A stretch of 35,652 nucleotides of DNA from a virus (lineage: Duplodnaviria; Heunggongvirae; Uroviricota; Caudoviricetes): the IMG/VR virus record IMGVR_UViG_2850773344_000006; one strand, given 5' to 3'. The notes beneath the pieces are model-generated. The model made no database searches and was not told the DNA's origin. It saw only the letters and a list, made by a program, of their open reading frames with translations. Positions 10,506 to 24,812 of this stretch are shown here, piece by piece (position 1 is the first letter of the stretch; each line of letters opens with the position of its first letter). Made by a program: the position numbers and the translations under genes.

Positions 10506-11420
10506 ATGCACTCAATAAAAAAAGTAACCATGCTCTTGGGGTGCCTCGCCCTCACCTGCTCGATCGCATTTCAGGCAAGTGCAACTGAAAAATTCAAGGT
10601 CATTACAACATTTACCATCATCGCGGATATGGCCAAAAACGTGGCTGGAGATGCTGCAGAAGTCTCATCCATAACCAAGCCTGGTGCAGAAATTCATGAG
10701 TATCAGCCTACCCCTGGCGATATTAAACGTGCGCAGGGGGCACAACTGATTCTCGCCAATGGTATGAATCTGGAATTGTGGTTCCAACGCTTTTACCAGC
10801 ATCTCAATGGGGTTCCAGAAGTAATTGTCTCTTCGGGTGTGACGCCAGTAGGGATCACCGAAGGACCCTATGAGGGCAAACCTAATCCCCATGCATGGAT
10901 GTCGCCAGATAATGCTCTGATTTACGTCGATAATATTCGTGATGCGTTGATAAAATACGATCCGGCAAATGCACAAACCTACCAACGTAATGCCGATACT
11001 TATAAAGCCAAGATTACCCAAACCCTTGCCCCCCTGCGTAAGCAGATTACGGAACTCCCTGAGAATCAGCGATGGATGGTCACCAGTGAAGGGGCTTTTT
11101 CTTATCTCGCACGCGATTTGGGGCTAAAAGAGCTTTATCTGTGGCCGATTAATGCCGATCAACAAGGAACACCGCAGCAGGTACGTAAGGTTGTTGATAT
11201 AGTTAAGAAAAATCATATCCCGGCAGTCTTTAGCGAGAGTACGATTTCCGATAAACCAGCGCGTCAGGTTGCGCGTGAAACCGGCGCACACTACGGCGGT
11301 GTGCTCTATGTCGATTCCCTGAGCACAGAAAACGGCCCGGTACCTACGTATATCGACCTTCTTAAGGTTACTACCAGTACGCTGGTACAGGGAATTAAAG
11401 CCGGGAAAAGGGAGAAATAA
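10506..11420 (+). CDS. sitA: Periplasmic metal-binding protein of an Mn/Fe ABC transporter
   Basis: 304 aa with signal-peptide-like N-terminus; first gene of a four-gene operon with overlapping stops and starts. Confidence 0.85.
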
Positions 11421-12247
11421 TGATGCAATCTGCAGGCATTGTCGTTAATGATGTTACTGTCACCTGGCGTAACGGGCACACAGCACTGCGCGATGCATCC
11501 TTCACAGTACCAAGTGGATCTATTGCCGCTCTGGTTGGGGTAAACGGTTCCGGAAAATCGACGTTGTTTAAAGCGATTATGGGATTTGTGCGTCTGACCA
11601 GCGGAAAGATATCTGTTCTGGGTATTCCCACGCGACAGGCGCTACAGAAAAACCTGGTTGCCTACGTCCCTCAGTCAGAAGAGGTTGACTGGTCATTTCC
11701 TGTACTGGTGGAAGATGTGGTGATGATGGGCCGCTATGGGCATATGGGTATGTTGCGTATAGCCAAAAAGAGGGATCGTCAGATTGTCACCGATGCGCTG
11801 GAACGTGTCGATATGGTGGATTTTCGCCATCGTCAAATCGGCGAGCTTTCCGGTGGACAAAAGAAACGCGTCTTTCTGGCGAGAGCAATTGCACAGCAGG
11901 GTGATGTGATCCTGCTGGATGAACCTTTTACCGGCGTTGATGTGAAAACCGAAGCGAAAATCATCAGCCTGTTGAGGGAGTTACGCGCGGAAGGCAAAAC
12001 GATGCTTGTCTCAACGCACAATCTCGGCTCAGTCACGACATTTTGCGATTATACGGTCATGGTCAAAGGCACCGTCCTGGCAAGCGGGCCGACAGACACC
12101 ACTTTTACAGCCGAGAACCTGGAGCTGGCTTTTAGCGGCGTACTGCGCCATGTCACACTTAACGGCTCGGAAGAAAGCATTATTACTGACGATGAACGCC
12201 CTTTTGTGGCACATCGACCGTCAGCGGTGCAGAGGGAAGCAAGATGA
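11420..12247 (+). CDS. sitB: ABC transporter ATP-binding protein
   Basis: Walker [10 protein letters not shown], signature LSGGQKKR, Walker B ILLDEP; start overlaps the sitA stop (TAATG). Confidence 0.85.
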
Positions 12248-13101
12248 ACGTGCTACTGGAACCCTTCAGCTATGAATATATGCTCAATGCGATGTGGGTC
12301 TCGGCAATGGTCGGCGGTCTCTGCGCTTTCCTGTCATGCTATTTGATGCTAAAAGGCTGGTCGCTGATTGGCGATGCGCTGTCGCACTCTATTGTCCCGG
12401 GTGTTGCGGGGGCATATATGCTGGGGCTTCCGTTTTCTCTGGGAGCCTTCTTTTCCGGCGGACTGGCAGCGGGCAGCATGCTGTTTCTTAACCAACGCAC
12501 CCGCTTAAAAGAAGATGCCATCATCGGCCTGATCTTCTCGTCCTTTTTTGGCCTGGGGCTGTTTATGGTGTCATTGAACCCGACATCCGTGAACATTCAG
12601 ACCATCGTCCTAGGCAATATTCTGGCAATCGATCCGGCGGATATCCTGCAACTCACTATCATTGGCATTCTCTCGATCATCGTGCTTTTTTTCAAATGGA
12701 AAGATCTTATGGTGACCTTTTTCGACGAGAATCACGCCCGTGCTATTGGATTACATCCGGGCAGATTAAAAATCCTCTTCTTCACCCTGCTGTCGGTTTC
12801 GACCGTTGCGGCGCTGCAAACGGTTGGTGCCTTTCTGGTGATCTGTCTGGTGGTGACTCCCGGTGCAACAGCATGGTTGTTAACCGATCGTTTTCCCCGC
12901 CTGCTCATAATTGCTGTAACTATTGGCAGTGTAACCAGTTTCCTCGGCGCGTGGGTCAGTTACTTTCTGGACGGCGCGACAGGTGGAATCATCGTGGTGG
13001 CGCAGACACTGCTGTTTCTTTTAGCATTTGTATTTGCGCCCACCCATGGACTTTTGGCAAATCGTCGGCGTGCGCATAAAGCGCTGGAGGATCGCTCATG
13101 A
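12244..13101 (+). CDS. sitC: ABC transporter permease
   Basis: 285-aa hydrophobic multi-span protein; start overlaps sitB stop. Confidence 0.85.
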
Positions 13102-13955
13102 TGGCATTATTACTGGAGCCACTGCAGTTCACCTTTATGAGTCACGCACTGCTGATTTCACTGGTAGTTTCCATACCCTGTGCGCTGCTGTCGGTCTTTC
13201 TGGTCCTGAAAGGTTGGGCACTGATGGGTGACGCGATGAGTCATGCGGTTTTTCCTGGCATCGTGCTTACCTGGATTCTGGGGTTACCTCTGGCTACAGG
13301 GGCATTCGTCGCCGGAGTATTCTGCGCGGTGGCGACGGGATACCTGAAAGACAACAGCCGAATCAAGCAAGATACAGTTATGGGGATTGTTTTTTCTGGC
13401 ATGTTTGCCGCAGGTCTGATCTTGTATATTGCAATTAAACCAGACGTACATCTTGACCATATTCTTTTCGGCGACATGCTCGGGATAACCATCGGCGATA
13501 TAATCCAGACGGTGATTATTGCCGGGCTGGTTACACTTGTTATTAGCGTAAAATGGCGGGATTTTTTGCTGTTCAGCTTTGATTATCAACAGGCGCAGGT
13601 AAGCGGTTTGCATACGAGATGGCTGCATTATGGGCTGCTGTGCATGGTTTCCCTGACCATTGTGGCGACGCTGAAAGCAGTAGGTATCATTCTCTCTATT
13701 TCTCTGCTCATTGCGCCTGGCGCCATTGCAGTACTCCTGACACAACGCTTTCATATTGCGCTCCTACTGGCGACTGGCATATCGGTAATAGTGTCAATGA
13801 CTGGTGTCTGGCTGTCCTTTTTTATCGACAGCGCACCAGCTCCGACGATTGTCGTCTTATTCGCGGTCGTGTTCATCATGACGTTTACCGTTACCAGCAT
13901 CAACGCACGCACAAAGGGAAACGCCCATACACAGGATCTGTTATCACCCAATTAG
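13098..13955 (+). CDS. sitD: ABC transporter permease
   Basis: 285-aa hydrophobic paralogue of the preceding permease. Confidence 0.85.
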   Translation: MMALLLEPLQFTFMSHALLISLVVSIPCALLSVFLVLKGWALMGDAMSHAVFPGIVLTWILGLPLATGAFVAGVFCAVATGYLKDNSRIKQDTVMGIVFSGMFAAGLILYIAIKPDVHLDHILFGDMLGITIGDIIQTVIIAGLVTLVISVKWRDFLLFSFDYQQAQVSGLHTRWLHYGLLCMVSLTIVATLKAVGIILSISLLIAPGAIAVLLTQRFHIALLLATGISVIVSMTGVWLSFFIDSAPAPTIVVLFAVVFIMTFTVTSINARTKGNAHTQDLLSPN

Positions 13956-14080: not shown

Positions 14081-14170
14081 ATTCAATACTCGCACTATCG
14101 AAAGTTTACCAGCCAACCGCGGCACGTTCCTGCATACGACGTGCCGCAGCTTCTGTTATTCCACGATAAA
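14081..14170. repeat. Roughly 90-bp conserved hairpin element, copy B
   Basis: 8-bp stem GCGGCACG/CGTGCCGC at 14119..14147; aligns with 2585..2672. Lies between the sitD stop and the tfa copy 2 stop. Confidence 0.6.
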
Positions 14171-14779
14171 ATTCCTAACCGAATTCAAATCCTTCAGACT
14201 ATTCAGCTCTTCCTTCAGCTCCCGCTGACGGCGATAAATCTCATCGTTGCGATCGACCTGCGCCTGCACCATTGCTGCCGCCAGTTCTTCCAGTTCCGGC
14301 ATCGACAGTTTCACCTGCTGATTATCGGCATCGCTCCACGCCATATGTGTTTGTGCTGTGACAGATTTTGCCAGCATGACTACCGGGGACAGGCGGCCCA
14401 GTGAGTCGGGACCAGCATTCCAGATACGACCGTTCCATTCAAACGTGAACAGCTTCGCCTCCTGTTCTGCGCGCCATGCTTCAATTTCCTGACGTCTGGC
14501 CTCTCTGGCCGCTTCCAGCATTTCTGGTGTCACAGTGAATGGGGCTATCTCACCCCATTTGCCACTTTGCAGTTCCTGCCAGATTCGCTGACCCGTCGGT
14601 GCGACATCATCAGCGGTGGCTGTGTAGGGGACTGCTTGGTCCCTGTCGTCAAAAAAAACGTCACAGTCTACTGCGCCACTTTCGGTATAACGGGGATTAA
14701 TGATTTTTTTAATTTCCACGGTGCATTCCTCACGATGTGCGAATAAAAAGCCCGGGCATTGCGCCAGAGACATGAGCAT
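14156..14779 (-). CDS. Phage tail-fibre-associated protein (putative tail fibre assembly or chaperone), copy 2
   Basis: 207-aa paralogue of 4776..5399; 14223..14897 is near-identical to 4843..5517. Confidence 0.5.
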   Translation of the reverse strand: MLMSLAQCPGFLFAHREECTVEIKKIINPRYTESGAVDCDVFFDDRDQAVPYTATADDVAPTGQRIWQELQSGKWGEIAPFTVTPEMLEAAREARRQEIEAWRAEQEAKLFTFEWNGRIWNAGPDSLGRLSPVVMLAKSVTAQTHMAWSDADNQQVKLSMPELEELAAAMVQAQVDRNDEIYRRQRELKEELNSLKDLNSVRNFIVE

Positions 14780-15993
14780 CCGGCACCCCGGACAGGGCGC
14801 AATATGACCCCGGTAATGAATGCTCTGAACATCCCGTAATGAAAAATTGTGGGGATGCTATATACGTTCCGGTGGGAGTACTGGGCACTGAAATCCCCAC
14901 CGGTCCCAGTCGTGAGCCTCTGTATGACTGCCCCCTGACAAGTCTGATGACTTTATCACCGTCAGCTTCTCCCTGGTACGCAGCAATAATCAGCCCGCCA
15001 ATGTCAGGGTCTCCCCATCTGTTGCGGACAGAGCTCGCCACGATTCTGTAAATAATATCTTCTGTGGTTATATTTATTTTCACCCAGTCAGTCTGGATAT
15101 GGGCCAGTAGCGGTAGCGGGTGTGATAAATGGGGCCGTTAATGCCGTAAAAAGTAAGGGATTTGGCTCTGTACCGCGGTTCTGTTGTCTCAGGGCGTGCA
15201 TCAGTCCACCGGATGCTGAGCACCCCTTCAAACCGTGTGTCGGGTATGATGATGCCGTAGGGGCCAGCAACGGAATATTCACCTGGCAGCGCATTCCTTA
15301 CCCAGGCCAGGAAATCACTCTTAGTGTCAAAACGGATAACATCTTCAGGCAGAAAAGCACACCCAAAGCCGAATGCGCCGGGTATCGCCAGACGGCCTTT
15401 TGTCCGGTCGTAAATGTCGCTCTGTGCTTCCATCGTGGCCGCACTTTTCAGCCCCAGATTATCCCGGGACTTCTGTTGTGCCTTTTCGCCTGCTGCTGCG
15501 ATTTCAGACAGATGGTTAGCCGTTTTCAGAGTGCCGGTCAGCGCAGCATCAATGTCATTTTTGGCCTGCTCTGCTGCGCGGGCATAACCTGCGGCTGCCG
15601 CCACATCCTGCGCCGTCTGCTGTGCGTTTCCGGCTGCGGCCCCGGCGCTCTGCTGCGCCTGCGCCACCATTTCCTCAAAGCGTTTGACGACATCCGGTTT
15701 CAGGTCGCCCTCATCAGGAGCAATCAGAAAGTCATTCAGCGTACCGGGCTTTGAGTCCTCATATACAGCAATGTCGCCAACGTTGTACTCGTTGTGCCAG
15801 TCCTGTTTCAGATACACACCATATTTCCAGTCCGCGCATGGAAACAGTATTCACCATCGTTTCCTGTCATCACATCAGCAACAGTGTGCATCACCACTTC
15901 CGGGGTGTTTACCCGGGATTTCAGAATAATATGGTATCCGGACATGGAGATACCTGCGCCATCAGTCAGCGCACCTGATATCACTACAGACAT
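14730..15993 (-). pseudogene. Lambda Stf-like side tail fibre gene, shortened and broken by at least two frame changes
   Basis: N-terminal ORF 15808..15993 (MSVVISGALTDGAGISMSGYHIILKSRVNTPEVV...) and ORF 15080..15817 (...VYEDSKPGTLNDFL...) resemble the remembered lambda Stf N-terminus; the C-terminal piece 14730..15083 is in a third frame. Confidence 0.6.
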
Positions 15994-16016
15994 AGTTTTT
16001 CTCGCGATAAATTAAA

Positions 16017-16504
16017 TCAGGAAGAAATTTCCGGAGAAGCGGGCCATTCAATGGCGTTGTATGAGGTTTTATCAGTGATGACACTGAAATCCATCGCCTG
16101 CAGCGATTTCGCGTAAATGCGGTACGCTTTCAGTTTTTCCCGGTCTTCGTCGCTGATTAGCCCCAGCAACAGGTCTTCTTCCCATTCCCCTGTCCGGGCA
16201 CTGACCTGAGCCAGAAGGGCATCACGCTCATCTTCCGCTTTGAGTCTGTAGTCAAAGACAAATTCATCATTGCGGTAAAACCAGTAACCCGGCGCGGTAA
16301 TGCGGCGGTTGGCGGTAATATCAGGAACTTCAATAACACTGGCGTTACGGGGTTCAATGCCTGTCACATCCTTACCGACCCACACCACGCGACCGTCTCC
16401 GGTGTAAGTTATTTTAATTGTGTCCTGGCGAAATTCTTCAGCTCTTCATACCAGTTTTTTCCGTCTTCTGAAAAAAGCCAGGTGACCGAATATCGTTTTG
16501 TCAT
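16017..16504 (-). pseudogene. Tail fibre assembly protein gene with an internal stop or frameshift
   Basis: ATG at 16504 gives [25 protein letters not shown]... then a stop; ORF 16017..16388 continues with ...EVPDITANRR...EDERDALLAQ...REKLKAYRIYAKSLQ, typical of Tfa C-termini. Confidence 0.6.
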
Positions 16505-16584: not shown

Positions 16585-16937
16585 CTAGGTGCCATTAATC
16601 AGTTTTTGCAGTGGTCGGTAATACACACCGTCAACGTTATCCGCTGAGTTACGGCCGGTATCCGATATCGCCATCCCTGACAGCCCGTGTCCCGAAGGTG
16701 CGCAAAATCTCCACGAAACGGTGTTACTGCCGGGGCTGTAATACATTTCATGGCCATACCGTACATCCTGTACCCCCTCTGTTCGATATTTATAGCGGGC
16801 ATCGAAGTTTCCGTCATTTAACGGAATTACCTGTCCGTTAACAGTGAACACTATGCTGTTATCCGGGTTTCTCTGGCTGAAAAAATGCCAGCCTGAATCA
16901 TCGCCAAGCTCTGCAACAACAGGCCTGGATGGATTAC
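16585..16937 (-). pseudogene. 3' fragment of a tail fibre gene truncated by IS600 copy 2
   Basis: The track ORF 16585..16953 starts inside the IS600 end; the phage-derived part begins at the IS boundary (16937). Confidence 0.5.
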
Positions 16938-17884
16938 TGAGGTGTACTGGCAATAGCGGACACTACCATTTGTTCTTTTTTTAAGCAGCCATCTGATGAT
17001 ATTTTTCCCTGAAGGCTGCCGGGGATATTCCCCAGACGAGAGTGACGACGCTGACGATTGTAGAAAATCTCAATGTATTCCCGTATTACTGAGATGGCTT
17101 CATCCCGGTTATTAAAACGATAGTGGCTCAGGCTCTCATTTTTCAGCGTTCCCCAGAAGCTTTCCATCGGAGCGTTGTCGTAACAGTTACCTTTACGCGA
17201 CATTGATGTTTTCAGACCAGACTGCTCCTGTATGACCCGGTAATCGTATGCGCAGTACTGTGAACCTCGATCAGAGTGGTGGATTAGCCCGGCAGGTGGG
17301 CGCTGGCTCCTGAGCGCCATAAACAGGGCTTTACCTGTCAGCTCTTTTGTCATGCGCTCTCCCATGGCGTAGCCGACAATTTCGCACGTATAAACATCTT
17401 TGATGCCAGCGAGGTACAACCATCCCTCCTGTGTGGCAACATACGTCAGGTCCGCCACCCAGACCTGATTTGGTGCTGTAGGAGCGAACGTCTGGTTCAG
17501 CAGATTTGGCGCAACTGGCAGATTGTGGTTCGGGTTCGTAGTCGCTCTGAACTTGCGTTTCTGCTTACAGCGTAGCCTCAGCTCCTTACGAAGACGTGCC
17601 AGTCGGTCACGACCAACGATGATGCCATTCTCTGCCAGCTCCGTCTGGAGCCGCCGGGTTCCATATGTTTCGCGAGTGCGGATATGTGCCACCTTAATCT
17701 CCAGTTTTAGCCGCTCATCACTTTGTTTTCTGTCTGAGGGTTCATGCTGTACCCAGTTGTAATAACCGCTCCTGGATACACCAAATACCTGACACATCGC
17801 TTCAATGGGAAATTGTTGTCGCCATTGTTCGATTAACGCGTATTTTTCAGCGACTCCTGTGCAAAATACGCTGTTGCTTTTTTT
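16938..17884 (-). mobile_element. IS600, copy 2, truncated (orfA side replaced by IS1 B)
   Basis: End TGAGGTGTACTGG at 16938; identity to other copies stops at the T7 run at 17878-17884, where IS1 begins. Confidence 0.85.
16981..17797 (-). pseudogene. IS600 orfB, frameshifted (2-bp loss at the same site as copy 1)
   Basis: gccggggatattcccc versus gccggggagatattcccc in the intact copies; C-terminus becomes ...RLGNIPGSLQGKISSDG... Confidence 0.8.
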
Positions 17885-17899
17885 GGTAATGACTCCAAC

Positions 17900-18403
17900 T
17901 TACTGATAGTGTTTTATGTTCAGATAATGCCCGATGACCTTGTCATGCAGCTCCACCGATTTTGAGAACGACAGTGACTTCCGTCCCAGCCTTGCCAGAT
18001 GTTGTCTCAGATTCAGATTATGTCGCTCAATGCGCTGAGTGTAACGCTTGCTGATAACGTGCAGCTTTCCCTTCAGGCGTGATTCATACAGCGGACAGCC
18101 ATCCGTCATCCATACCACGACCTCAAAGGCCGACAGCAGGCTCAGAAGACGCTCCAGTGTGGCCAGAGTGCGTTCACCGAAGACGTGCGCCACAACCGTC
18201 CTCCGTATCCTGTCATACGCGTAAAACAGCCAGCGCTGACGTGATTTAGCACCGACGTAGCCCCAATGTTCGTCCATTTCAGCGCAGACAATCACATCAC
18301 TGCCCGGTTGTATGCGCGAGGTTACCGACTGCGGCCTGAGTTTTTTAAGTGACGTAAAACCGTGTTGAGGCCAACGCCCATAATGCGTGCACTGGCGCGA
18401 CAT
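17900..18403 (-). CDS. insB: IS1 InsB
   Basis: Identical 167-aa ORF. Confidence 0.9.
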
Positions 18404-18597
18404 CCGACGCCATTCATGGCCATATCAATGATTTTCTTGTGCGTACCGGGCTGAGAGGCGGTGTAAGTGAACTGTAGTTGCCATGTTTTACGGCAATGAG
18501 AGCAGAGATTGCGCTGATGTCCGGCAGTGCTTTTGCCGTTACGCACCACGCCTTCAGTAGCGGAGCAGGAAGGACATCTGATGGAAATGGAAGCCAC
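18322..18597 (-). CDS. insA: IS1 InsA
   Basis: 91 aa; one substitution (R to N at residue 29) relative to copies A and C. Confidence 0.9.
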
Positions 18598-18652
18598 GCA
18601 AGCACCTTAAAATCACCATCATACACTAAATCAGTAAGTTGGCAGCATTACC

Positions 18653-18808
18653 CGCGTTAAGTTCTTCGAGCATCTTACGAATATCACGAAGGACATTTCG
18701 GTGCTCGTTGCCTGTCAGCTCAGCAATTTCAACTGAGGTCATGGACACAAGCTGGTCGAGGTTAATGATGCTGATTTCTTGTTGTGGTTGTTGTGGTTGT
18801 TGAGACAT
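18653..18808 (-). pseudogene. 5' fragment of a Rha-family phage regulatory protein gene, truncated by IS1 B
   Basis: MSQQPQQPQQEISIINLDQLVSMTSVEIAELTGNEHRNVLRDIRKMLEELNA, then the IS1 end; N-terminal motif resembles the Rha/ORF6N family (from memory). AGGAAA ribosome-binding site 7 nt upstream. Confidence 0.55.
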
Positions 18809-18969
18809 CGCTTGATTTCCTTTTTGTTTGCACCCTGAAGTCGCCCCCCCACTGACCTACTCAAAGTCCCCAAGCGAAGGGAGACCAGCAGGACAACAGG
18901 ATGCAAACAGAATGACTTTGAGATTGAATACTATGATGATGACGATGTAGCTGTGCGGAGCTACTGGGA

Positions 18970-19190
18970 GGGTCTCTCTAGGAGCCACTCTAGGGTCTCT
19001 CTAGGCATCAGGCTATACGAAACTACAGGGCATCCTAAAGAATGACGTACAGGGCCATAGAGGACCATAGAGGGCCATAGAGTTAGCTTCTGGGGGTAAT
19101 GCCTAGAGGAGACCCTAGAGGAGACCCTAGAGAGACCTATAGAGAGACCATAGAGAAGACCTATAGAGAGACCCTAGAGAAGACCTATAG
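18970..19190. repeat. Arrays of short degenerate tandem repeats (units CC(C)TA(T)AGAG / GGTCTC)
   Basis: Seven consecutive 11-13 bp units (GAGACCCTAGAG, AGACCTATAGAG, AGACCATAGAG...) at 19104..19190; three CCATAGAG units at 19049..19081; two GGGTCTCTCTAGG at 18970..19004. Non-coding. Confidence 0.85.
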
Positions 19191-19239
19191 GTTTGGTGAT
19201 TGATTATTATAAATATCATCACCCCTTAAGGTATTCCCT

Positions 19240-19335
19240 TAGAGTTAATCTTTAATTGGTCTTTAATTAAATCTTTTATTTAATACTTAAAGTTAATCTC
19301 TAATTGTGTCTTTAAGTTAACTTTAAGTTAAGCCC
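19240..19335. other. AT-rich block with reiterated CTTTAA(G/T)TTA motifs
   Basis: tctttaattggtctttaattaaatcttttatttaatacttaaagttaatctctaattgtgtctttaagttaactttaagttaag; lies between the T7-type promoter and the tandem repeats. Confidence 0.7.
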
Positions 19336-19525
19336 CTGTAGGGACTAGAGACCATAATTAAGATGATTGTGTCTTATTGCTATTCACTTATCGACTGACC
19401 CAGAGCACACAGGAAGCATTCACTTTAAGTAGAACGCTTGGTGTCTGTAATTGGTCATCCCGCCCCTGAAAGGATGCGATAAGTTACGGTTAGTTGTCCT
19501 AGAAGAGAAAACTTTTTGTGTCCCT

Positions 19526-19548
19526 TCTCCCTATAGTGAGTCGTATTA
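19526..19548 (-). promoter_or_regulatory. Exact T7 RNA polymerase class III promoter consensus (TAATACGACTCACTATAGGGAGA), firing leftward
   Basis: Plus strand reads tctccctatagtgagtcgtatta, a 23/23 match to the T7 consensus; predicted +1 G at 19531; 88 bp downstream of the int stop. Confidence 0.75.
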
Positions 19549-19635
19549 ATTATCCTTGACAAGTAGAGAAAACTATGAGTCAAAAACATGACCACACAGG
19601 TCTGTAGTAAGTGTCATCCTAGACTATGGTCTCCT

Positions 19636-21240
19636 CTAGGTCTCCTTATAAACATCAGCCATCACATTGACCAGCCTATCAACCTCGACCTCTTTAGCAT
19701 AACGGTCGTAAGTAATAGACCCTGAACTATGCCCCATGATCGCCTGTGCATACGCCAACTCGACCCCATGTTGTTTTAACTGGGTCGCAACTGTATGTCT
19801 AAACGAGTGAAACGCTAAGCCGCTACGGTCTACGAGGACTTTAGGCAACAACGTCCGATTAAACCATTTACTCACCTGCTCACCGTAACCGTTCTTCATG
19901 AGACGCAGACCATCGAACACCATAGCGTCATCACCGTCAGCGCCTCTACGGGTCTCTACAAGCGCCATAAAGTCAGCCAATATAAAACCATAGGCCCCAT
20001 CGACCAGAGGCACACAGCGGTCACTATGAGCGTTCTTGATGCTCTTACCGGGTAGACTACTATCGTCTTCATTGATATGAATATAAACGGTTCCCGCCTC
20101 AGTGGTCCTGACGTCTTTGACCTGTAGTTGGGCTATTTCATTGAGTCTCGCCCCAGTGATAGCAGCCAAGGCGGTAACATAATAATGATACGGCTTACCA
20201 GAGGTCTTCTGAGAGTATGCCTTAGCTGCGACCAGTAGTTGCCCCACCTGCTCCGTAGAGAAGGCGTTACGGGCCCCTGAGGCTTTACGCTGAGGGACTT
20301 TAAGCTCCAGACCCTCAGTCATGTTCTTTTTAATCAAGTCATTGCGCACAACCCACCTAAAGACAGCAGCCATCTTAATAAGATACTTGTTGTTGATGGT
20401 AACGACATCCAGACAATCTGTCTTATCTTCACGGCTCAACAGGTCAGCAAGTGGGACATCCTTGAAGCGCTGCTTACGGTTCCTAGGTAACTGCTGGAGC
20501 ACATCACGGACCCTAAGCATGTCAGCCCTGTTAGCGTCTGCATTGAGACCCAGATGGTCGAATATTTCGATTAACGCAGCGTGTGACGCCTTGTTTTCCC
20601 TTAAGGTTGCAGGCTTCCAGTTCTGATAGTTCTCCGCTTCGTATTGCTCAAAGAGGCTCGCTATGGTAATGCTAGGCGTAACTTCTGGTTTTACTTCTGG
20701 AGCATTAACAGATAGGGACACAGAGTCTGCTTGGTTATCTTGCCTATCAATATCATTAAAAAGATCGACGTAATCTATCAGAGGCTGACTGTCTCCCGCT
20801 TCGATACGCCTCATACAGGCTTTTAGCACCTTCAGGGCCTCATTGATGTAACGATGCTGGTCAATGCTTAGCGGCTCACTAGCCAGAGCATCGGTAAGGC
20901 TCTCACCAAGTTCTCCGTATTGGTCCCGGTAGATATCCCTCATGTCAGGCTCAAAGAGATCTGAACGGCCCATAGACAGTTCACACTCAGCGATGTCCTT
21001 AAGGTGTTCCCTCATTTCCTCATAGGTAGCGTTGGGTCTGTCTGCGTGTATTGCCTTGAGTGCTGCCTTTATGTGCCTTGAGTAAGCCATAGCGGTGCGT
21101 CTATCCTTGGTCCGTAATGATATTGAGGTCATTCTATCATTGTTTGATTGTCTGACCCTAAGACGGAAGTAGTAGACGCCGTTACGCTGGTAGAGATAGT
21201 AGACTGCTGGAAGTTTGTGACTACTGGATAGCTGAATCAT
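19636..21240 (-). CDS. int: Tyrosine recombinase / integrase (534 aa)
   Basis: C-terminal catalytic region with ...GARLNEIAQL..., HSFRHTVATQL and ...GHSSGSITYDRYAKE (R, HxxR, Y signature); long N-terminal domain. Confidence 0.8.
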   Translation of the reverse strand: MIQLSSSHKLPAVYYLYQRNGVYYFRLRVRQSNNDRMTSISLRTKDRRTAMAYSRHIKAALKAIHADRPNATYEEMREHLKDIAECELSMGRSDLFEPDMRDIYRDQYGELGESLTDALASEPLSIDQHRYINEALKVLKACMRRIEAGDSQPLIDYVDLFNDIDRQDNQADSVSLSVNAPEVKPEVTPSITIASLFEQYEAENYQNWKPATLRENKASHAALIEIFDHLGLNADANRADMLRVRDVLQQLPRNRKQRFKDVPLADLLSREDKTDCLDVVTINNKYLIKMAAVFRWVVRNDLIKKNMTEGLELKVPQRKASGARNAFSTEQVGQLLVAAKAYSQKTSGKPYHYYVTALAAITGARLNEIAQLQVKDVRTTEAGTVYIHINEDDSSLPGKSIKNAHSDRCVPLVDGAYGFILADFMALVETRRGADGDDAMVFDGLRLMKNGYGEQVSKWFNRTLLPKVLVDRSGLAFHSFRHTVATQLKQHGVELAYAQAIMGHSSGSITYDRYAKEVEVDRLVNVMADVYKET

Positions 21241-21354: not shown

Positions 21355-21429
<75 letters not shown>

Positions 21430-21432
21430 ATA

Positions 21433-21508
<76 letters not shown>

Positions 21509-21510
21509 GC

Positions 21511-21587
21511 TGGCCCACCACCGAGGACTCGAACCTCGCACCGTCAACTTAGAAGGTTGATGCTCTATCCGGATGAGCTAGTGGTGG
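21511..21587 (-). tRNA. tRNA-Arg (anticodon UCU), with an atypical C1:G72 acceptor pair
   Basis: Reverse complement CCACCACTAGCTCATCCGGATAGAGCATCAACCTTCTAAGTTGACGGTGCGAGGTTCGAGTCCTCGGTGGTGGGCCA; all four stems pair. Confidence 0.65.
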
Positions 21588-21588
21588 T

Positions 21589-21665
21589 TGGTGGCCCTTG
21601 CTGGACTTGAACCAGCGACCTGGCGATTATGAGTCGCTCGCTCTGACCAACTGAGCTAAAGGGCC
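21589..21665 (-). tRNA. tRNA with CAU anticodon, probably Ile2 (lysidine type) rather than elongator Met
   Basis: Reverse complement GGCCCTTTAGCTCAGTTGGTCAGAGCGAGCGACTCATAATCGCCAGGTCGCTGGTTCAAGTCCAGCAAGGGCCACCA; resembles the remembered E. coli ileX more than metT. Confidence 0.65.
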
Positions 21666-21780: not shown

Positions 21781-22426
21781 TCAAGTGTCCATGTCTGCTA
21801 TTCGCCTCGCGATACAGCTTTGCGAAGCTTACCGGAATTGAAGCAGTTTATGTGCAAAAATGCAAGAACTTTTTTAAAGCTGCATCAACCTTTCCACCAG
21901 TTTATCTCTGCGAACAACAAACCAACCATTGGCTCTCGCCAGTTCCAGCCATGACTCAAGGGAAATAACAATATCATCATCCCGTAACTGAATTGTGGAA
22001 ACAGTGACACCGCCTCTCTGATAACAGAGAACTCGCGTGTCGTAACTTTTCTGGCATGAAACTGGCGTTGACGGATCCCTTTGACTGAAATAGCAGTCTT
22101 CCAGTTTTTCGAACACATCCCACGCCTGATCGGTTTCGAGCATTTTGCCGTGGCGTGCTGCGCCTCGTTCTGTCCAGAGGATGAGGGAGCGGGCTTTGGG
22201 TGAAACTGGATTTTGTGAGTAGTTTAAAGCGACCCGCAATTCTTTAAGGTCATTACCAACAACTTTGAAAAAGTGTTTCCCTTCAACGAAGCGTACTTTG
22301 TTCTCATGATGATTCTGGCGAATACGCACCGGCTCAGTGCCGTAAAGCTGCGCCAAAAGTTCGGTGGTAATAACAGGAATCTGTGAGGTGTACTGGCAAT
22401 AGCGGACACTACCATTTGTTCTTTTT

Positions 22427-23245
22427 TTAAGCAGCCATCTGATGATATTTTTCCCTGAAGGCTGCCGGGGAGATATTCCCCAGACGAGAGTGACGACGCT
22501 GACGATTGTAGAAAATCTCAATGTATTCCCGTATTACTGAGATGGCTTCATCCCGGTTATTAAAACGATAGTGGCTCAGGCTCTCATTTTTCAGCGTTCC
22601 CCAGAAGCTTTCCATCGGAGCGTTGTCGTAACAGTTACCTTTACGCGACATTGATGTTTTCAGACCAGACTGCTCCTGTATGACCCGGTAATCGTATGCG
22701 CAGTACTGTGAACCTCGATCAGAGTGGTGGATTAGCCCGGCAGGTGGGCGCTGGCTCCTGAGCGCCATAAACAGGGCTTTACCTGTCAGCTCTTTTGTCA
22801 TGCGCTCTCCCATGGCGTAACCGACAATTTCGCACGTATAAACATCTTTGATGCCAGCGAGGTACAACCATCCCTCCTGTGTGGCAACATACGTCAGGTC
22901 CGCCACCCAGACCTGATTTGGTGCTGTAGGAGCGAACGTCTGGTTCAGCAGATTTGGCGCAACTGGCAGATTGTGGTTCGGGTTCGTAGTCGCTCTGAAC
23001 TTGCGTTTCTGCTTACAGCGTAGCCTCAGCTCCTTACGAAGACGTGCCAGTCGGTCACGACCAACGATGATGCCATTCTCTGCCAGCTCCGTCTGGAGCC
23101 GCCGGGTTCCATATGTTTCGCGAGTGCGGATATGTGCCACCTTAATCTCCGGTTTTAGCCGCTCATCACTTTGTTTTCTGTCTGAGGGTTCATGCTGTAC
23201 CCAGTTGTAATAACCGCTCCTGGATACACCAAATACCTGACACAT
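22427..23245 (-). CDS. IS600 orfB transposase (DDE), intact
   Basis: 272 aa ending ...RLGNISPAAFREKYHQMAA. Confidence 0.9.
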   Translation of the reverse strand: MCQVFGVSRSGYYNWVQHEPSDRKQSDERLKPEIKVAHIRTRETYGTRRLQTELAENGIIVGRDRLARLRKELRLRCKQKRKFRATTNPNHNLPVAPNLLNQTFAPTAPNQVWVADLTYVATQEGWLYLAGIKDVYTCEIVGYAMGERMTKELTGKALFMALRSQRPPAGLIHHSDRGSQYCAYDYRVIQEQSGLKTSMSRKGNCYDNAPMESFWGTLKNESLSHYRFNNRDEAISVIREYIEIFYNRQRRHSRLGNISPAAFREKYHQMAA

Positions 23246-23280
23246 CGCTTCAATGGGAAATTGTTGTCGCCATTGTTCGA

Positions 23281-23583
23281 TTAACGCGTATTTTTCAGCG
23301 ACTCCTGTGCAAAATACGCTGTTGCTTTTTTTAATATATCTCGCTCAAGGCGAGCTTCATTTAACGCCTTACGCAGTTGCAGAATTTCAGATTCCAGTTC
23401 AGCCACCGTGCGGGAACCAGGAGTACCGAGCCCTTTTCTGGCGGCGGTAACCCATTGTCCTAAAGTGCCTTCAGGAAGAGATAATCGGGAAGCGCCTTCA
23501 CTGATCGAAAGTTGATTTTCAAGAACCGTTCTGACAGCTTCGGCTTTGAACTCTTTAGAGTAACGTTGGGTTTTTCTGCTCAT
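23281..23583 (-). CDS. IS600 orfA
   Basis: 100-aa HTH protein. Confidence 0.9.
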   Translation of the reverse strand: MSRKTQRYSKEFKAEAVRTVLENQLSISEGASRLSLPEGTLGQWVTAARKGLGTPGSRTVAELESEILQLRKALNEARLERDILKKATAYFAQESLKNTR

Positions 23584-23970: not shown

Positions 23971-24525
23971 TCAACAAACGGTTTTTAGATCCCCGGAAGA
24001 GAATGCATCACGCATCGGTAGATAGAGCATATATTCAGCAAGATTTAGCCATACATCTACCCGACTGCAGCACGTCCGGAAACACCACTCAGGGTGTGCG
24101 TCATTCAGCAATTCAGCCATTTTACGCTTAGTCATCCCCCGCCCTTCATACCGTTGCCGGAGGACACTAATCAATCCAGGATGCTCTGCCAGCACCTCAC
24201 TTATGACTCTATCAATACATAACGCCTCTGCATCAGTACAATGCGCCAGCCAGGTCTTTTGCTTGCCATTGATCATCTCTCGCAAAAACGCTTCCAGCTC
24301 AGGTTTCTCTATTCCCGCTTTTTTCATCCTGCGCAGGGCTTCATTGACGGCTGTTTTCGTCAATTTTTTGGATGCCAGCAACTGGTTAAACATATTTCCC
24401 GTCTTACCGCCGCCAATATACGACCAGCGCCCCCACATGCGCAGTTTTCCCTGAATCCAGACACTTTCCAGCGTGGTGAGACGAAGGTGTTCCCCGCTTT
24501 TGCCTGTATTTGTTGGGTAAATCAT
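23971..24525 (-). CDS. Putative late-gene antiterminator (Q-like), 184 aa from the ATG overlapping the upstream stop
   Basis: Position after nin-like genes and before a terminator fits lambdoid Q; ATG at 24525 overlaps the ybcO-like stop (ATGA). Family call by synteny and weak memory only. Confidence 0.45.
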   Translation of the reverse strand: MIYPTNTGKSGEHLRLTTLESVWIQGKLRMWGRWSYIGGGKTGNMFNQLLASKKLTKTAVNEALRRMKKAGIEKPELEAFLREMINGKQKTWLAHCTDAEALCIDRVISEVLAEHPGLISVLRQRYEGRGMTKRKMAELLNDAHPEWCFRTCCSRVDVWLNLAEYMLYLPMRDAFSSGDLKTVC

Positions 24526-24812
24526 AAATAACCTTCCTTTCTCCAGATTTCTTGTGTGCGAAAAACACCTTCTGCATGCATCAGGCGTAATTCTTCTTTG
24601 GTGTAATCGCTGGTTTTTACCCGCCCGTCGATTAAATCGTGGCATGAGCTACAGGCAATCGCTGCCTGCATATCGTGTGGTTTTGTCGCTGTTCCGCACG
24701 TCCCCGCCAGCCTGTAATGCGCCAGCACAGAAGTTTCGGGATTGTGATTGCAGTAGCCAGGAATTCTGACGGTGCACATCTGCCCCCGCGCCGCTTTACG
24801 TAAATCCACCAT
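24522..24812 (-). CDS. Small Cys-rich lambdoid nin-region protein (YbcO-like, 96 aa)
   Basis: MVDLRKAARGQMCTVRIPGYCNHNPETSVLAHYRLAGTCGTATKPHD...; size and motif recalled from DLP12 ybcO. Confidence 0.55.
   Translation of the reverse strand: MVDLRKAARGQMCTVRIPGYCNHNPETSVLAHYRLAGTCGTATKPHDMQAAIACSSCHDLIDGRVKTSDYTKEELRLMHAEGVFRTQEIWRKEGYL

Follow-up and report, generated by a model that had tools for sequence, protein, structure and literature searches.

What is a perfect promoter for the RNA polymerase (RNAP) of phage T7 doing between an integrase gene and a truncated rha-like gene? The question is raised by positions 18,809 to 19,650 of IMG/VR virus record IMGVR_UViG_2850773344_000006, a stretch of 35,652 nucleotides that we refer to as a whole as the window. 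An earlier interpretation made without database searches (the sequence-only reading) had proposed a remnant of an integrative element that either derives from a T7-like podovirus or depends on a T7-like helper. According to our analysis, the window holds a defective copy, truncated by the insertion sequence IS1, of a 5.5–6.5 kb element that integrates at tRNA-Gly genes. With a probability of roughly 70%, elements of this kind are satellites (hitchers) of virulent T7-like phages (Autographiviridae, Studiervirinae), i.e. a natural form of T7 phagemid with its own capsid-fold protein. Somewhat less firmly, we consider it probable that they make up a new and widespread Enterobacterales family of capsid-encoding mini-satellites of about 6.4 kb, in which the helper RNAP is the induction signal, the promoters drive the origin and the capsid module, and a mimic of the terminal-repeat junction directs packaging. 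The hosts in question are E. coli, Shigella, Klebsiella, Citrobacter, Enterobacter, Pectobacterium, Proteus, Serratia, Yersinia and others.

The promoter is located in a non-coding region (NCR) downstream of the integrase gene (int); no open reading frame (ORF) of note is present at 18809–19635. In the direction of transcription, the features of this region are the following.

19503..19622, minus strand: promoter-bearing unit of about 120 bp, one copy in the window (NCR alignment)
19526..19548, minus strand: T7 class III promoter TAATACGACTCACTATAGGGAGA, exact match to the consensus
19452..19492, minus strand: near-invariant 41-nt block TAACCGTAACTTATCGCATCCTTTCAGGGGCGGGATGACCA (nhmmer matches in 14 loci and alignment)
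19236..19331, minus strand: AT-rich block with reiterated ACTTAAAG units, a look-alike of a T7-type origin (GC content, alignment to T7)
19195..19223, no strand assigned: inverted repeat GGTGAT-N17-ATCACC with an AT-rich N17, at the end of the AT-rich block (pattern search)
19102..19190, minus strand: main array, 12-bp unit CCTAGAGGAGAC (plus-strand reading) in about 7 copies (7.1) (repeat analysis)
19049..19082, minus strand: 10-bp unit AGGGCCATAG (plus-strand reading), 3.2 copies (repeat analysis)
18969..19005, minus strand: two exact 14-mers AGGGTCTCTCTAGG, at 18969–18982 and 18992–19005, inverted relative to the main array (repeat analysis)
18829..18905, minus strand: long imperfect hairpin in the leader of the first gene (conserved in 20 loci)

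The promoter (19548..19526) agrees with the consensus at 23/23 positions, i.e. with 0 mismatches, occurs a single time in the window and gave 0 matches in 100 shuffled sequences. Its 23-mer is that of T7 phi6.5, 9, 10, 13, 17 and OR, and together with the flank it is identical to T7 phi13, phi6.5, phi10 and phiOR over 26–27 nt. The 23-bp consensus spans −17 to +6; by sequence, the predicted +1 is the G at 19531, from which transcription would run towards rha. The sequence-only reading had described this promoter, its position between an integrase and an IS1-truncated rha-like gene starting at 18808, and also the AT-rich block, the tandem array, the three 10-bp units, the two 14-mers and a further repeat copy at the int stop, and all of these were found as reported. 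The last-mentioned copy (19624–19640) overlaps the int stop and is inverted relative to the main array.

Of 5426 complete E. coli genomes, 91 have a counterpart of the 842-bp region with 88–96% identity, and in each case it is chromosomal and unannotated. In these genomes a tRNA-Gly gene (glyU, beside actS and the ETT2 island) is followed by a gene for an integrase of about 540 amino acids, about 1.1 kb of non-coding DNA and a Rha or KilA-N gene. Homologues of the integrase with 65–87% identity were detected in 20 Enterobacterales genomes (Klebsiella, Citrobacter, Enterobacter, Buttiauxella, Pectobacterium, Proteus, Morganella, Kluyvera, Shimwellia, Rouxiella, Lonsdalea, Edaphovirga, Serratia, E. 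coli and Shigella), and every tRNA gene called next to them is a tRNA-Gly directly upstream of the integrase. The target is tRNA-Gly(UCC) in the window, and chromosomal glyU, a tRNA-Gly(CCC) gene, in other genera. Three IMG/VR contigs (L025, L026 and L029) encode an integrase 100% identical to that of the window, at the identical tRNA-Gly(UCC) of a Met-Arg-Thr-Gly cluster. A metagenome scan with an invariant 25-mer from the 41-nt block retrieved 22 further contigs. When the 842-bp region was compared by BLAST with 50,697 phage records, only a 58-bp promoter-centred match to the T7-like Salmonella phage Vi06 was obtained; therefore, the region has no long DNA homology to any sequenced phage.

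In most of the loci that were examined, int is followed by one to four T7-group 23-mers that point in the same direction as the operon. The 13-mer core that they share, CACTATAGGGAGA, was counted 32 times in 633 kb of related loci, where 0.019 occurrences would be expected, and in every locus inspected the promoter matches are found in the DNA that follows the integrase gene. Copies of the window's type from E. coli and Shigella have the T7 consensus in one to three tandem units of about 120 bp; among close relatives, three promoters stand 120–121 bp apart in L026 and L029, and two are found in L002 and L004. A second E. coli/Shigella subfamily has a promoter type like that of phage CR44b. Klebsiella pneumoniae ATCC 13883 combines a T7-type promoter with the exact K11 phi9/phi10/phi13 23-mer AATTAGGGCACACTATAGGGAGA and with AATTAGGTAGCACTATAGGGAGA. 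The latter is of the KP32-like type, for which 369 of the 392 matching phage records are Klebsiella phages, with 10–12 places per genome of about 40 kb. Klebsiella-type copies stack T7-type, K11-type and KP32-type promoters in one NCR (L005 12250–12845; metagenome loci L046–L066). The copies of Citrobacter, Enterobacter and Buttiauxella have GACTAAACTATCACTATAGGGAGA or GACTTAACTATC.., which do not differ from phi10 and phiOR of Citrobacter phage CR44b; those of Proteus and Kluyvera have the T3-like AATTAACCCACACTATAGGGAGA, and that of Pectobacterium jejuense has three CACTATTGGGAGA variants. A further type, ATTAAGACTCACTATAGGGAGA and ..CACTAAAGGGAGA, is found in the metagenome-assembled copy L034. 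The promoter type follows the T7-like phages of the host genus, which is the pattern that selection for recognition by the helper RNAP would give. In 19 of the 22 metagenome contigs, T7-group promoters lie 68–232 nt upstream of the 25-mer, and two or three specificities are often combined. Such stacking suggests hedging across several helper RNAPs.

The promoter is not the only part of the NCR with a counterpart in T7. About 190 nt beyond it begins the AT-rich block, where the GC content falls to 22–26% (19200–19349) and CTTTAAGTTAA-type units are reiterated. Saito et al. in 1980 and Rabkin & Richardson in 1988 are said to have found that an origin of T7 is made up of T7-RNAP promoters with AT-rich DNA behind them, and that such origins work on plasmids during infection. 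This architecture is established for the primary origin of T7 and for its secondary origins at phiOL and phiOR. We slid the block of the window (19195–19345, in transcribed orientation) along both strands of the whole T7 genome. Its two best places are downstream of phi1.1B, i.e. at the primary origin, and downstream of phiOL (score 37 versus 18 ± 3 for shuffles), and both have the same orientation relative to a promoter as in the window. The Klebsiella element, compared with K11, has its best places downstream of phi1.05 and phiOL. Where the inverted repeat GGTGAT-N17-ATCACC is found, it occurs once per element; it also occurs once in T7, at 39329–39354, about 100 nt downstream of phiOR. From these alignments, it is reasonable to regard the AT-rich block as a look-alike of a T7-type replication origin.

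A second look-alike concerns the end of the phage genome. In every full-length member checked, a motif composed of ..AAAAATCTGAG, about 6 nt, ATCT.., a spacer and CCCCCATAG is located between the tiny ORF that follows the operon and the right attachment site (attR), and aligns with the junction of unique DNA and right terminal repeat in T7, K11 and CR44b. The T7 junction reads ATACCATAAAAATCTGAG TGACTA|TCTCACAG..(28 nt after the GAG)..GTTCCCCCATAGG, and the mimic of L034 reads ATACCATAAAAATCTGAG AGGGTATGTAATAGG..(28 nt)..GTTCCCCCATCG, the 28-nt spacer being exactly as in T7. The CR44b junction, GACGATGAGTTTTGGACTAAAAGTTTGAGACCA|CATCTCACAG..CCCCATAGGCCC, has its equivalent in the Citrobacter element L013 (GACGATGAGTTTTGACTGAAAAATGTGAGACCCTATCTAATAC..CCCCATAGCCC). 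This alignment scores 61 versus 20 ± 2.5 for shuffles, more than at any other place of the CR44b genome, and straddles the annotated start of the CR44b terminal repeat at 39025. For the motif of the Klebsiella element, the best place in K11 is again the junction, at 40.97–41.03 kb. By its likeness, the motif near attR would mimic the packaging site of the helper. It is important to note that this mimic lies in the part that has been deleted from the window copy.

The sequence-only reading had looked to genomes in which the element is uncut for what follows the promoter, and such genomes could be found. Direct repeats of the attachment (att) sites, which comprise 17–31 nt of the tRNA 3′ end, delimit units of 5.5–6.5 kb in eight loci. 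Within them the order is int, often a DUF4145 gene, the NCR, a first gene, an ORF of 58–81 amino acids, DUF6971 (136–163 amino acids), a protein of 330–380 amino acids, a terminator, a tiny ORF, about 250 bp of non-coding DNA and attR. The first gene varies and encodes a Rha, KilA-N or Bro-N DNA-binding domain. The terminator behind the gene for the 330–380-residue protein consists of a hairpin and a T-run, and the tiny ORF following it is hydrophobic. It has the same position before the terminal repeat as gp19.5 of T7, K11 and CR44b, to which its similarity is not significant. Genes for RNAP, DNA polymerase, portal, terminase or tail proteins are absent from all intact copies examined.

The protein of 330–380 amino acids has no Pfam or PHROG match. 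Its AlphaFold2 (AF2) model (pLDDT 65.6, pTM 0.63) suggests an HK97-type capsid fold, and the structural matches include SaPI Ccm, a capsid-fold redirecting protein; we refer to it as capsid-like. DUF6971 corresponds to PDB entry 5EUR, “hypothetical protein SF216” of S. flexneri 5a M90T (L005 14197–14607 and homologues P0038–P0068). It consists of a small beta unit followed by long charged helices, and a fold search matched only its own crystal structure, 5EUR. The helical, charged C-terminal half allows the guess of a scaffold-like role. Neither the capsid-like protein with its HK97 fold nor the deleted packaging-site mimic is visible from the window sequence alone.

A form other than the integrated one was found among metagenome assemblies. 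L034 (ENA ERZ27247387) is 6628 bp long, has an exact terminal overlap of 141 bp and shows the permuted order NCR, Rha, small ORF, DUF6971, capsid-like gene, junction mimic and int, which is expected for a 6487-bp circle or a tandem form. The same capsid-to-int junction is spanned by L035, and L033 (6466 bp) has the tRNA 23-mer at both ends. As regards the general characteristics of phage satellites, we found a discrete small integrative element with int and att sites, no full set of virion, replication or lysis genes, and cis signals like those of a helper, the latter as sequence resemblance only.

Taken as a satellite, the element could work as follows. As far as its promoters tell, it would be silent in the chromosome, because the operon has phage-type promoters only. 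Upon infection, the single-subunit RNAP of a T7-like phage would initiate at the promoters of the element, which match its own in sequence. Transcription through the AT-rich block would open the T7-type origin, and the DNA polymerase and primase-helicase of the helper would amplify the element; such firing may be assumed because the block resembles the primary and phiOL origins of T7. From the layout of the genes, the same transcripts would express the Rha/KilA-N/Bro-N protein, the small protein, DUF6971 and the capsid-like protein, and would end at the hairpin-T-run terminator. The integrase would excise the element, and the circular or tandem form of 6.5 kb in the metagenome assembly could be its product. 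Finally, the helper terminase would recognise the junction copy near attP, and the element might be packaged as concatemers in helper heads or in smaller heads made with its own capsid protein. The capsid-like protein might form small heads of its own, contribute to mixed heads or poison assembly. For the window copy, transcription and perhaps replication during a T7 infection would be the most to be expected; it could not be packaged.

Several points weigh against a satellite. No virion-derived read or contig was found: the IMG/VR matches to the integrase and capsid profiles give no virion evidence because all have identifiers in the style of isolate genomes, and the 22 contigs from the 25-mer scan contain neither tandem copies (concatemers) nor terminal overlaps. 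The circular contig L034 could reflect a tandem duplication and not an excised circle. A terminase, a portal, a replication initiator or a recognisable excisionase was not found in the element, and the position of int upstream of the phage-type promoters leaves the timing of excision unexplained. No standard head size obviously suits a genome of 6.4 kb, except if multimers of it are packaged. The AF2 model of the capsid-like protein has only moderate confidence, a profile comparison revealed no similarity of its family to T7 gp10, and the protein could act as an assembly poison or an encapsulin-like shell, not as a packaging container. Lastly, members without the capsid module fit an island for defence at least as well.

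Such an infection-sensing defence island is the alternative that survives best, and we consider it unlikely without dismissing it. In this scenario, the phage RNAP would merely trigger the production of interfering proteins (a capsid-fold decoy, binders of the Rha/KilA-N type, toxins), the look-alikes would titrate replication and packaging proteins of the helper, and the element would not be transferred. Indeed, the operon seems to depend on a phage RNAP, since no sigma-70-like promoter was found on its strand in the window NCR, and the members with mixed specificity resemble broad sensors. In some members the capsid module has also been exchanged, while int, the promoter and the origin-like region are kept. 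In L024 a Phd/Doc toxin-antitoxin pair (13068–13672) takes its place, and in L011 (12658–15224) and L021 (11569–15210) a serine recombinase (resolvase) and unknown small genes do so; these replacements may be defence cargo triggered by a phage RNAP. SaPI Ccm among the structural matches can be read in the same way. Known satellites, too, usually interfere with their helpers, so that defence overlaps with a satellite lifestyle and does not exclude it. Pure defence, however, leaves unexplained why the integrase is conserved, why there are att repeats, and why the element has spread horizontally across at least 20 genera at one tRNA site. Nor does it account for the mimic of the terminal-repeat junction beside attP or for the circularly assembled 6.5 kb form.

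Far less probable is a decayed temperate prophage of a T7-like podovirus, of which int and the circularised region of the genome ends (phiOR, repeats, terminal repeat, phiOL) would be left after a deletion. Integrase-bearing T7-like prophages do occur elsewhere, e.g. in Pseudomonas putida and among marine cyanophages, and the content of the NCR is like that of the T7 concatemer junction area, with promoter, AT-rich origin, inverted repeat and short-repeat arrays. Yet the att repeats bound just 5.5–6.5 kb in the eight loci, with the same small gene set across distant genera, and therefore point to a maintained element and not to independent decay. Moreover, RNAP, DNA polymerase, portal, tail and terminase genes were found in no copy, the capsid-like protein is unrelated in sequence to gp10, and DNA similarity to phages is confined to short motifs. 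Of the two origins offered by the sequence-only reading, the helper-dependent integrative element is thus favoured by the compact att-bounded islands, the host-matched promoters and the mimics of origin and junction, and the podovirus remnant is not. The element may well descend from such a T7-like podovirus all the same.

That a contaminating vector or expression strain, or a chimeric assembly, brought in a laboratory T7 promoter can practically be dismissed: although the 23-mer is identical to the promoter of common vectors, the 91 complete E. coli genomes, which are independent of each other, have the promoter together with its two flanks at one and the same chromosomal position, and it recurs in the IMG/VR contigs with the 100% identical integrase and in the 22 metagenome contigs, the integrase homologues share the tRNA-Gly/promoter layout, no vector accounts for the varying copy number and promoter specificity, and the flanks, as had been noted before, are not polylinker sequence.

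How does a satellite of T7-like phages compare with systems already described? Functionally closest is the engineered T7 phagemid. According to PMC13236587, which cites Chung & Hinkle 1990, T7 replicates, packages and transduces plasmids in which a T7 origin is combined with a pac site and the terminal repeat. Such a phagemid combines a T7-RNAP promoter and AT-rich origin with a terminal-repeat/pac region, and the element has look-alikes of both parts. Unlike the phagemid, however, it is natural, chromosomal and integrative, has its own operon including a capsid-fold protein, and carries motifs tuned to different T7-like genera. In size and lifestyle, the closest natural elements are PICMI/VEIME, integrative elements of about 5–7 kb with an integrase and virulent helpers, for which concatemer packaging is plausible and which are reported to lack capsid genes (PMC10803314, PMC9618062). 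The present element differs from them by its capsid-fold gene and its gene content; their hosts are marine Vibrionaceae and bacterioplankton, and phage-RNAP promoters have not been reported for them. PICMI/VEIME carry AlpA, Fis or replication genes.

With regard to a private capsid protein, the cf-PICIs come closest. These elements (e.g. EcCI2) have about 10–15 kb, with genes for a portal, for a protease or scaffold, for head-tail connectors and for a small terminase; tails are all that they obtain from their temperate helpers. Our element, in contrast, has only the capsid-like gene and DUF6971, without portal or terminase. It likewise lacks the Stl/AlpA, primase-replicase and TerS modules of SaPI/PICI and P4 (Ccm, CpmAB, Sid) according to Pfam and PHROG scans, and is smaller (about 6.4 kb versus about 10–15 kb). 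Those islands are induced by derepression, whereas induction here would proceed via the helper RNAP. With a T7-group genome (phiOR, terminal repeat and phiOL, and the primary origin at phi1.1A/B) the element shares the promoter consensus, an AT-rich ACTTAAAG-type sequence like that of the origins, the GGTGAT..ATCACC repeat that follows phiOR, arrays of short repeats, the motif of the junction and a terminator behind the capsid gene, but it has none of the replication, transcription, portal, tail and lysis genes, and the shared parts are interleaved with int and att. Because the defining features of each fail, we did not file the element under PICI, cf-PICI, PICMI or T7-like prophage. Full texts of PMC and bioRxiv (subscription-only literature lies outside this scope) yielded no account of Studiervirinae satellites, of chromosomal elements bearing T7-type promoters or of DUF6971. 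This result is in line with the earlier statement that no example from Shigella or E. coli had been described.

The window copy itself is bounded as follows.

21355..21429, minus strand: tRNA-Gly(UCC), the integration target, with attL at its 3′ end (ARAGORN)
19636..21240, minus strand: int, tyrosine integrase of 534 amino acids, Phage_integrase and weak DUF6538 (domain search)
18653..18808, minus strand: Rha-family first gene, 5′ fragment of 52 codons (Pfam Phage_pRha, E = 2.6e-9)
17885..18652, minus strand: IS1, which truncates the element and is not part of it, far end approximate (terminal repeat, InsA/InsB ORFs, IS1 annotation in matching records)

The terminal repeat of IS1, GGTAATGCTGCCAACTTACTGATTTAGTG, reads from 18652 downwards and cuts rha after 52 codons; a full-length homologue of the fragment, with 248 amino acids, is encoded in L018. 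All that followed codon 52 of rha has been lost to IS1, and the window copy is therefore a remnant, as had been supposed from the sequence. Apart from attL and int, it retains no more than a single promoter, the origin-like region, the repeat arrays and the 52 rha codons; it has neither the small ORF nor DUF6971, and both the capsid-like gene and the distal non-coding DNA are missing. IS1 and IS600-type copies (17885–18652, 16585–17797 and 22427–23583) flank or truncate the element. In L029, whose integrase is the same as that of the window, an insertion sequence is inserted inside the NCR instead. All this points to repeated, independent hits of insertion sequences on this element in Shigella-type genomes.

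The tRNA-Gly(UCC) gene is the last of a Met-Arg-Thr-Gly tRNA cluster (21355–21665) located downstream of a Q-like antiterminator gene (DUF1133/Phage_antitermQ; 23971–24645) of a degraded lambdoid prophage. Because the element sits at a prophage-borne tRNA-Gly(UCC), a putative satellite of T7-like phages is here nested in a lambdoid prophage. Just beyond the tRNA cluster, an ORF6N-domain (KilA-N-related) gene (21874–22521, minus strand) belongs to the surrounding prophage and not to the element. The window further holds a gene for an ipaH-type NEL E3 ligase effector (2941–4596), a sit-type (ZnuA-family) metal transporter operon (10506–13955), and lambdoid tail-fibre and tail-fibre-assembly genes (14156–16388). 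This is a typical Shigella prophage-island mosaic and suggests that the chromosome is of the Shigella type.

Three further features of the NCR deserve mention. The 41-nt block TAACCGTAACTTATCGCATCCTTTCAGGGGCGGGATGACCA is kept from E. coli to Morganella, Rouxiella and Edaphovirga and is more conserved than the proteins of the element; it is absent from T7, K11 and CR44b, where it was sought. The 187-nt leader after the promoter folds no better than shuffles (z = −1.5), and therefore the invariant block is not explained as structured RNA. A scan of 18500–19800 against Rfam (E ≤ 1) gave no match. The long imperfect hairpin, on the other hand, is present in 20 loci regardless of the type of the first gene, and of the 27 pairs that RNAalifold predicts for it, 5 show compensatory changes. 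By analogy, it is possibly a processing site of the RNase III type or a stabilising site, like those of T7 mRNAs. The short-repeat arrays differ among close relatives in copy number and even in their presence (NCR alignment). They recall the arrays beside the T7 terminal repeats; the likeness to a genome end drawn by the sequence-only reading is reasonable, if only loosely testable. In some copies from E. coli, long arrays of other short repeats, e.g. about 15 units of GGCGATGACCATAG and several of TGTGGTCC, lie between the int stop and the promoters (L004 12930–13200; L002 15720–15850). These arrays do not occur in the window copy, and in L001 and L004 a degenerate extra promoter-like sequence, AATCAATACGACTTACTAATAGGAGA, lies 3′ of them. 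At 18809–19650 the T7 primase pentamers GGGTC, TGGTC and GTGTC are enriched about 5-fold (9 and 10 on the two strands versus 1.9 ± 1.4 in shuffles), a count that is confounded with the GGTCTC-containing repeats.

If the satellite interpretation is true, recognition of the promoters by the helper RNAP would be a novel and very direct logic of induction, which needs no repressor and is automatically specific for one phage genus. Where promoters of several specificities are stacked, as in the Klebsiella copies, the range of induction would be broader. T7-like phages, strictly virulent by the textbook, belong to the mainstays of phage therapy, above all for Klebsiella and E. coli. The elements would thus provide a natural route of horizontal transfer driven by virulent podoviruses, and would be a likely source of interference for therapeutic T7-like phages. 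For synthetic biology, they would offer a natural minimal T7 phagemid chassis, with look-alikes of origin and pac site and a small capsid module. Finally, they would give a context to an unannotated HK97-fold protein family and to DUF6971 (PDB 5EUR), for which this would be the first functional hint.

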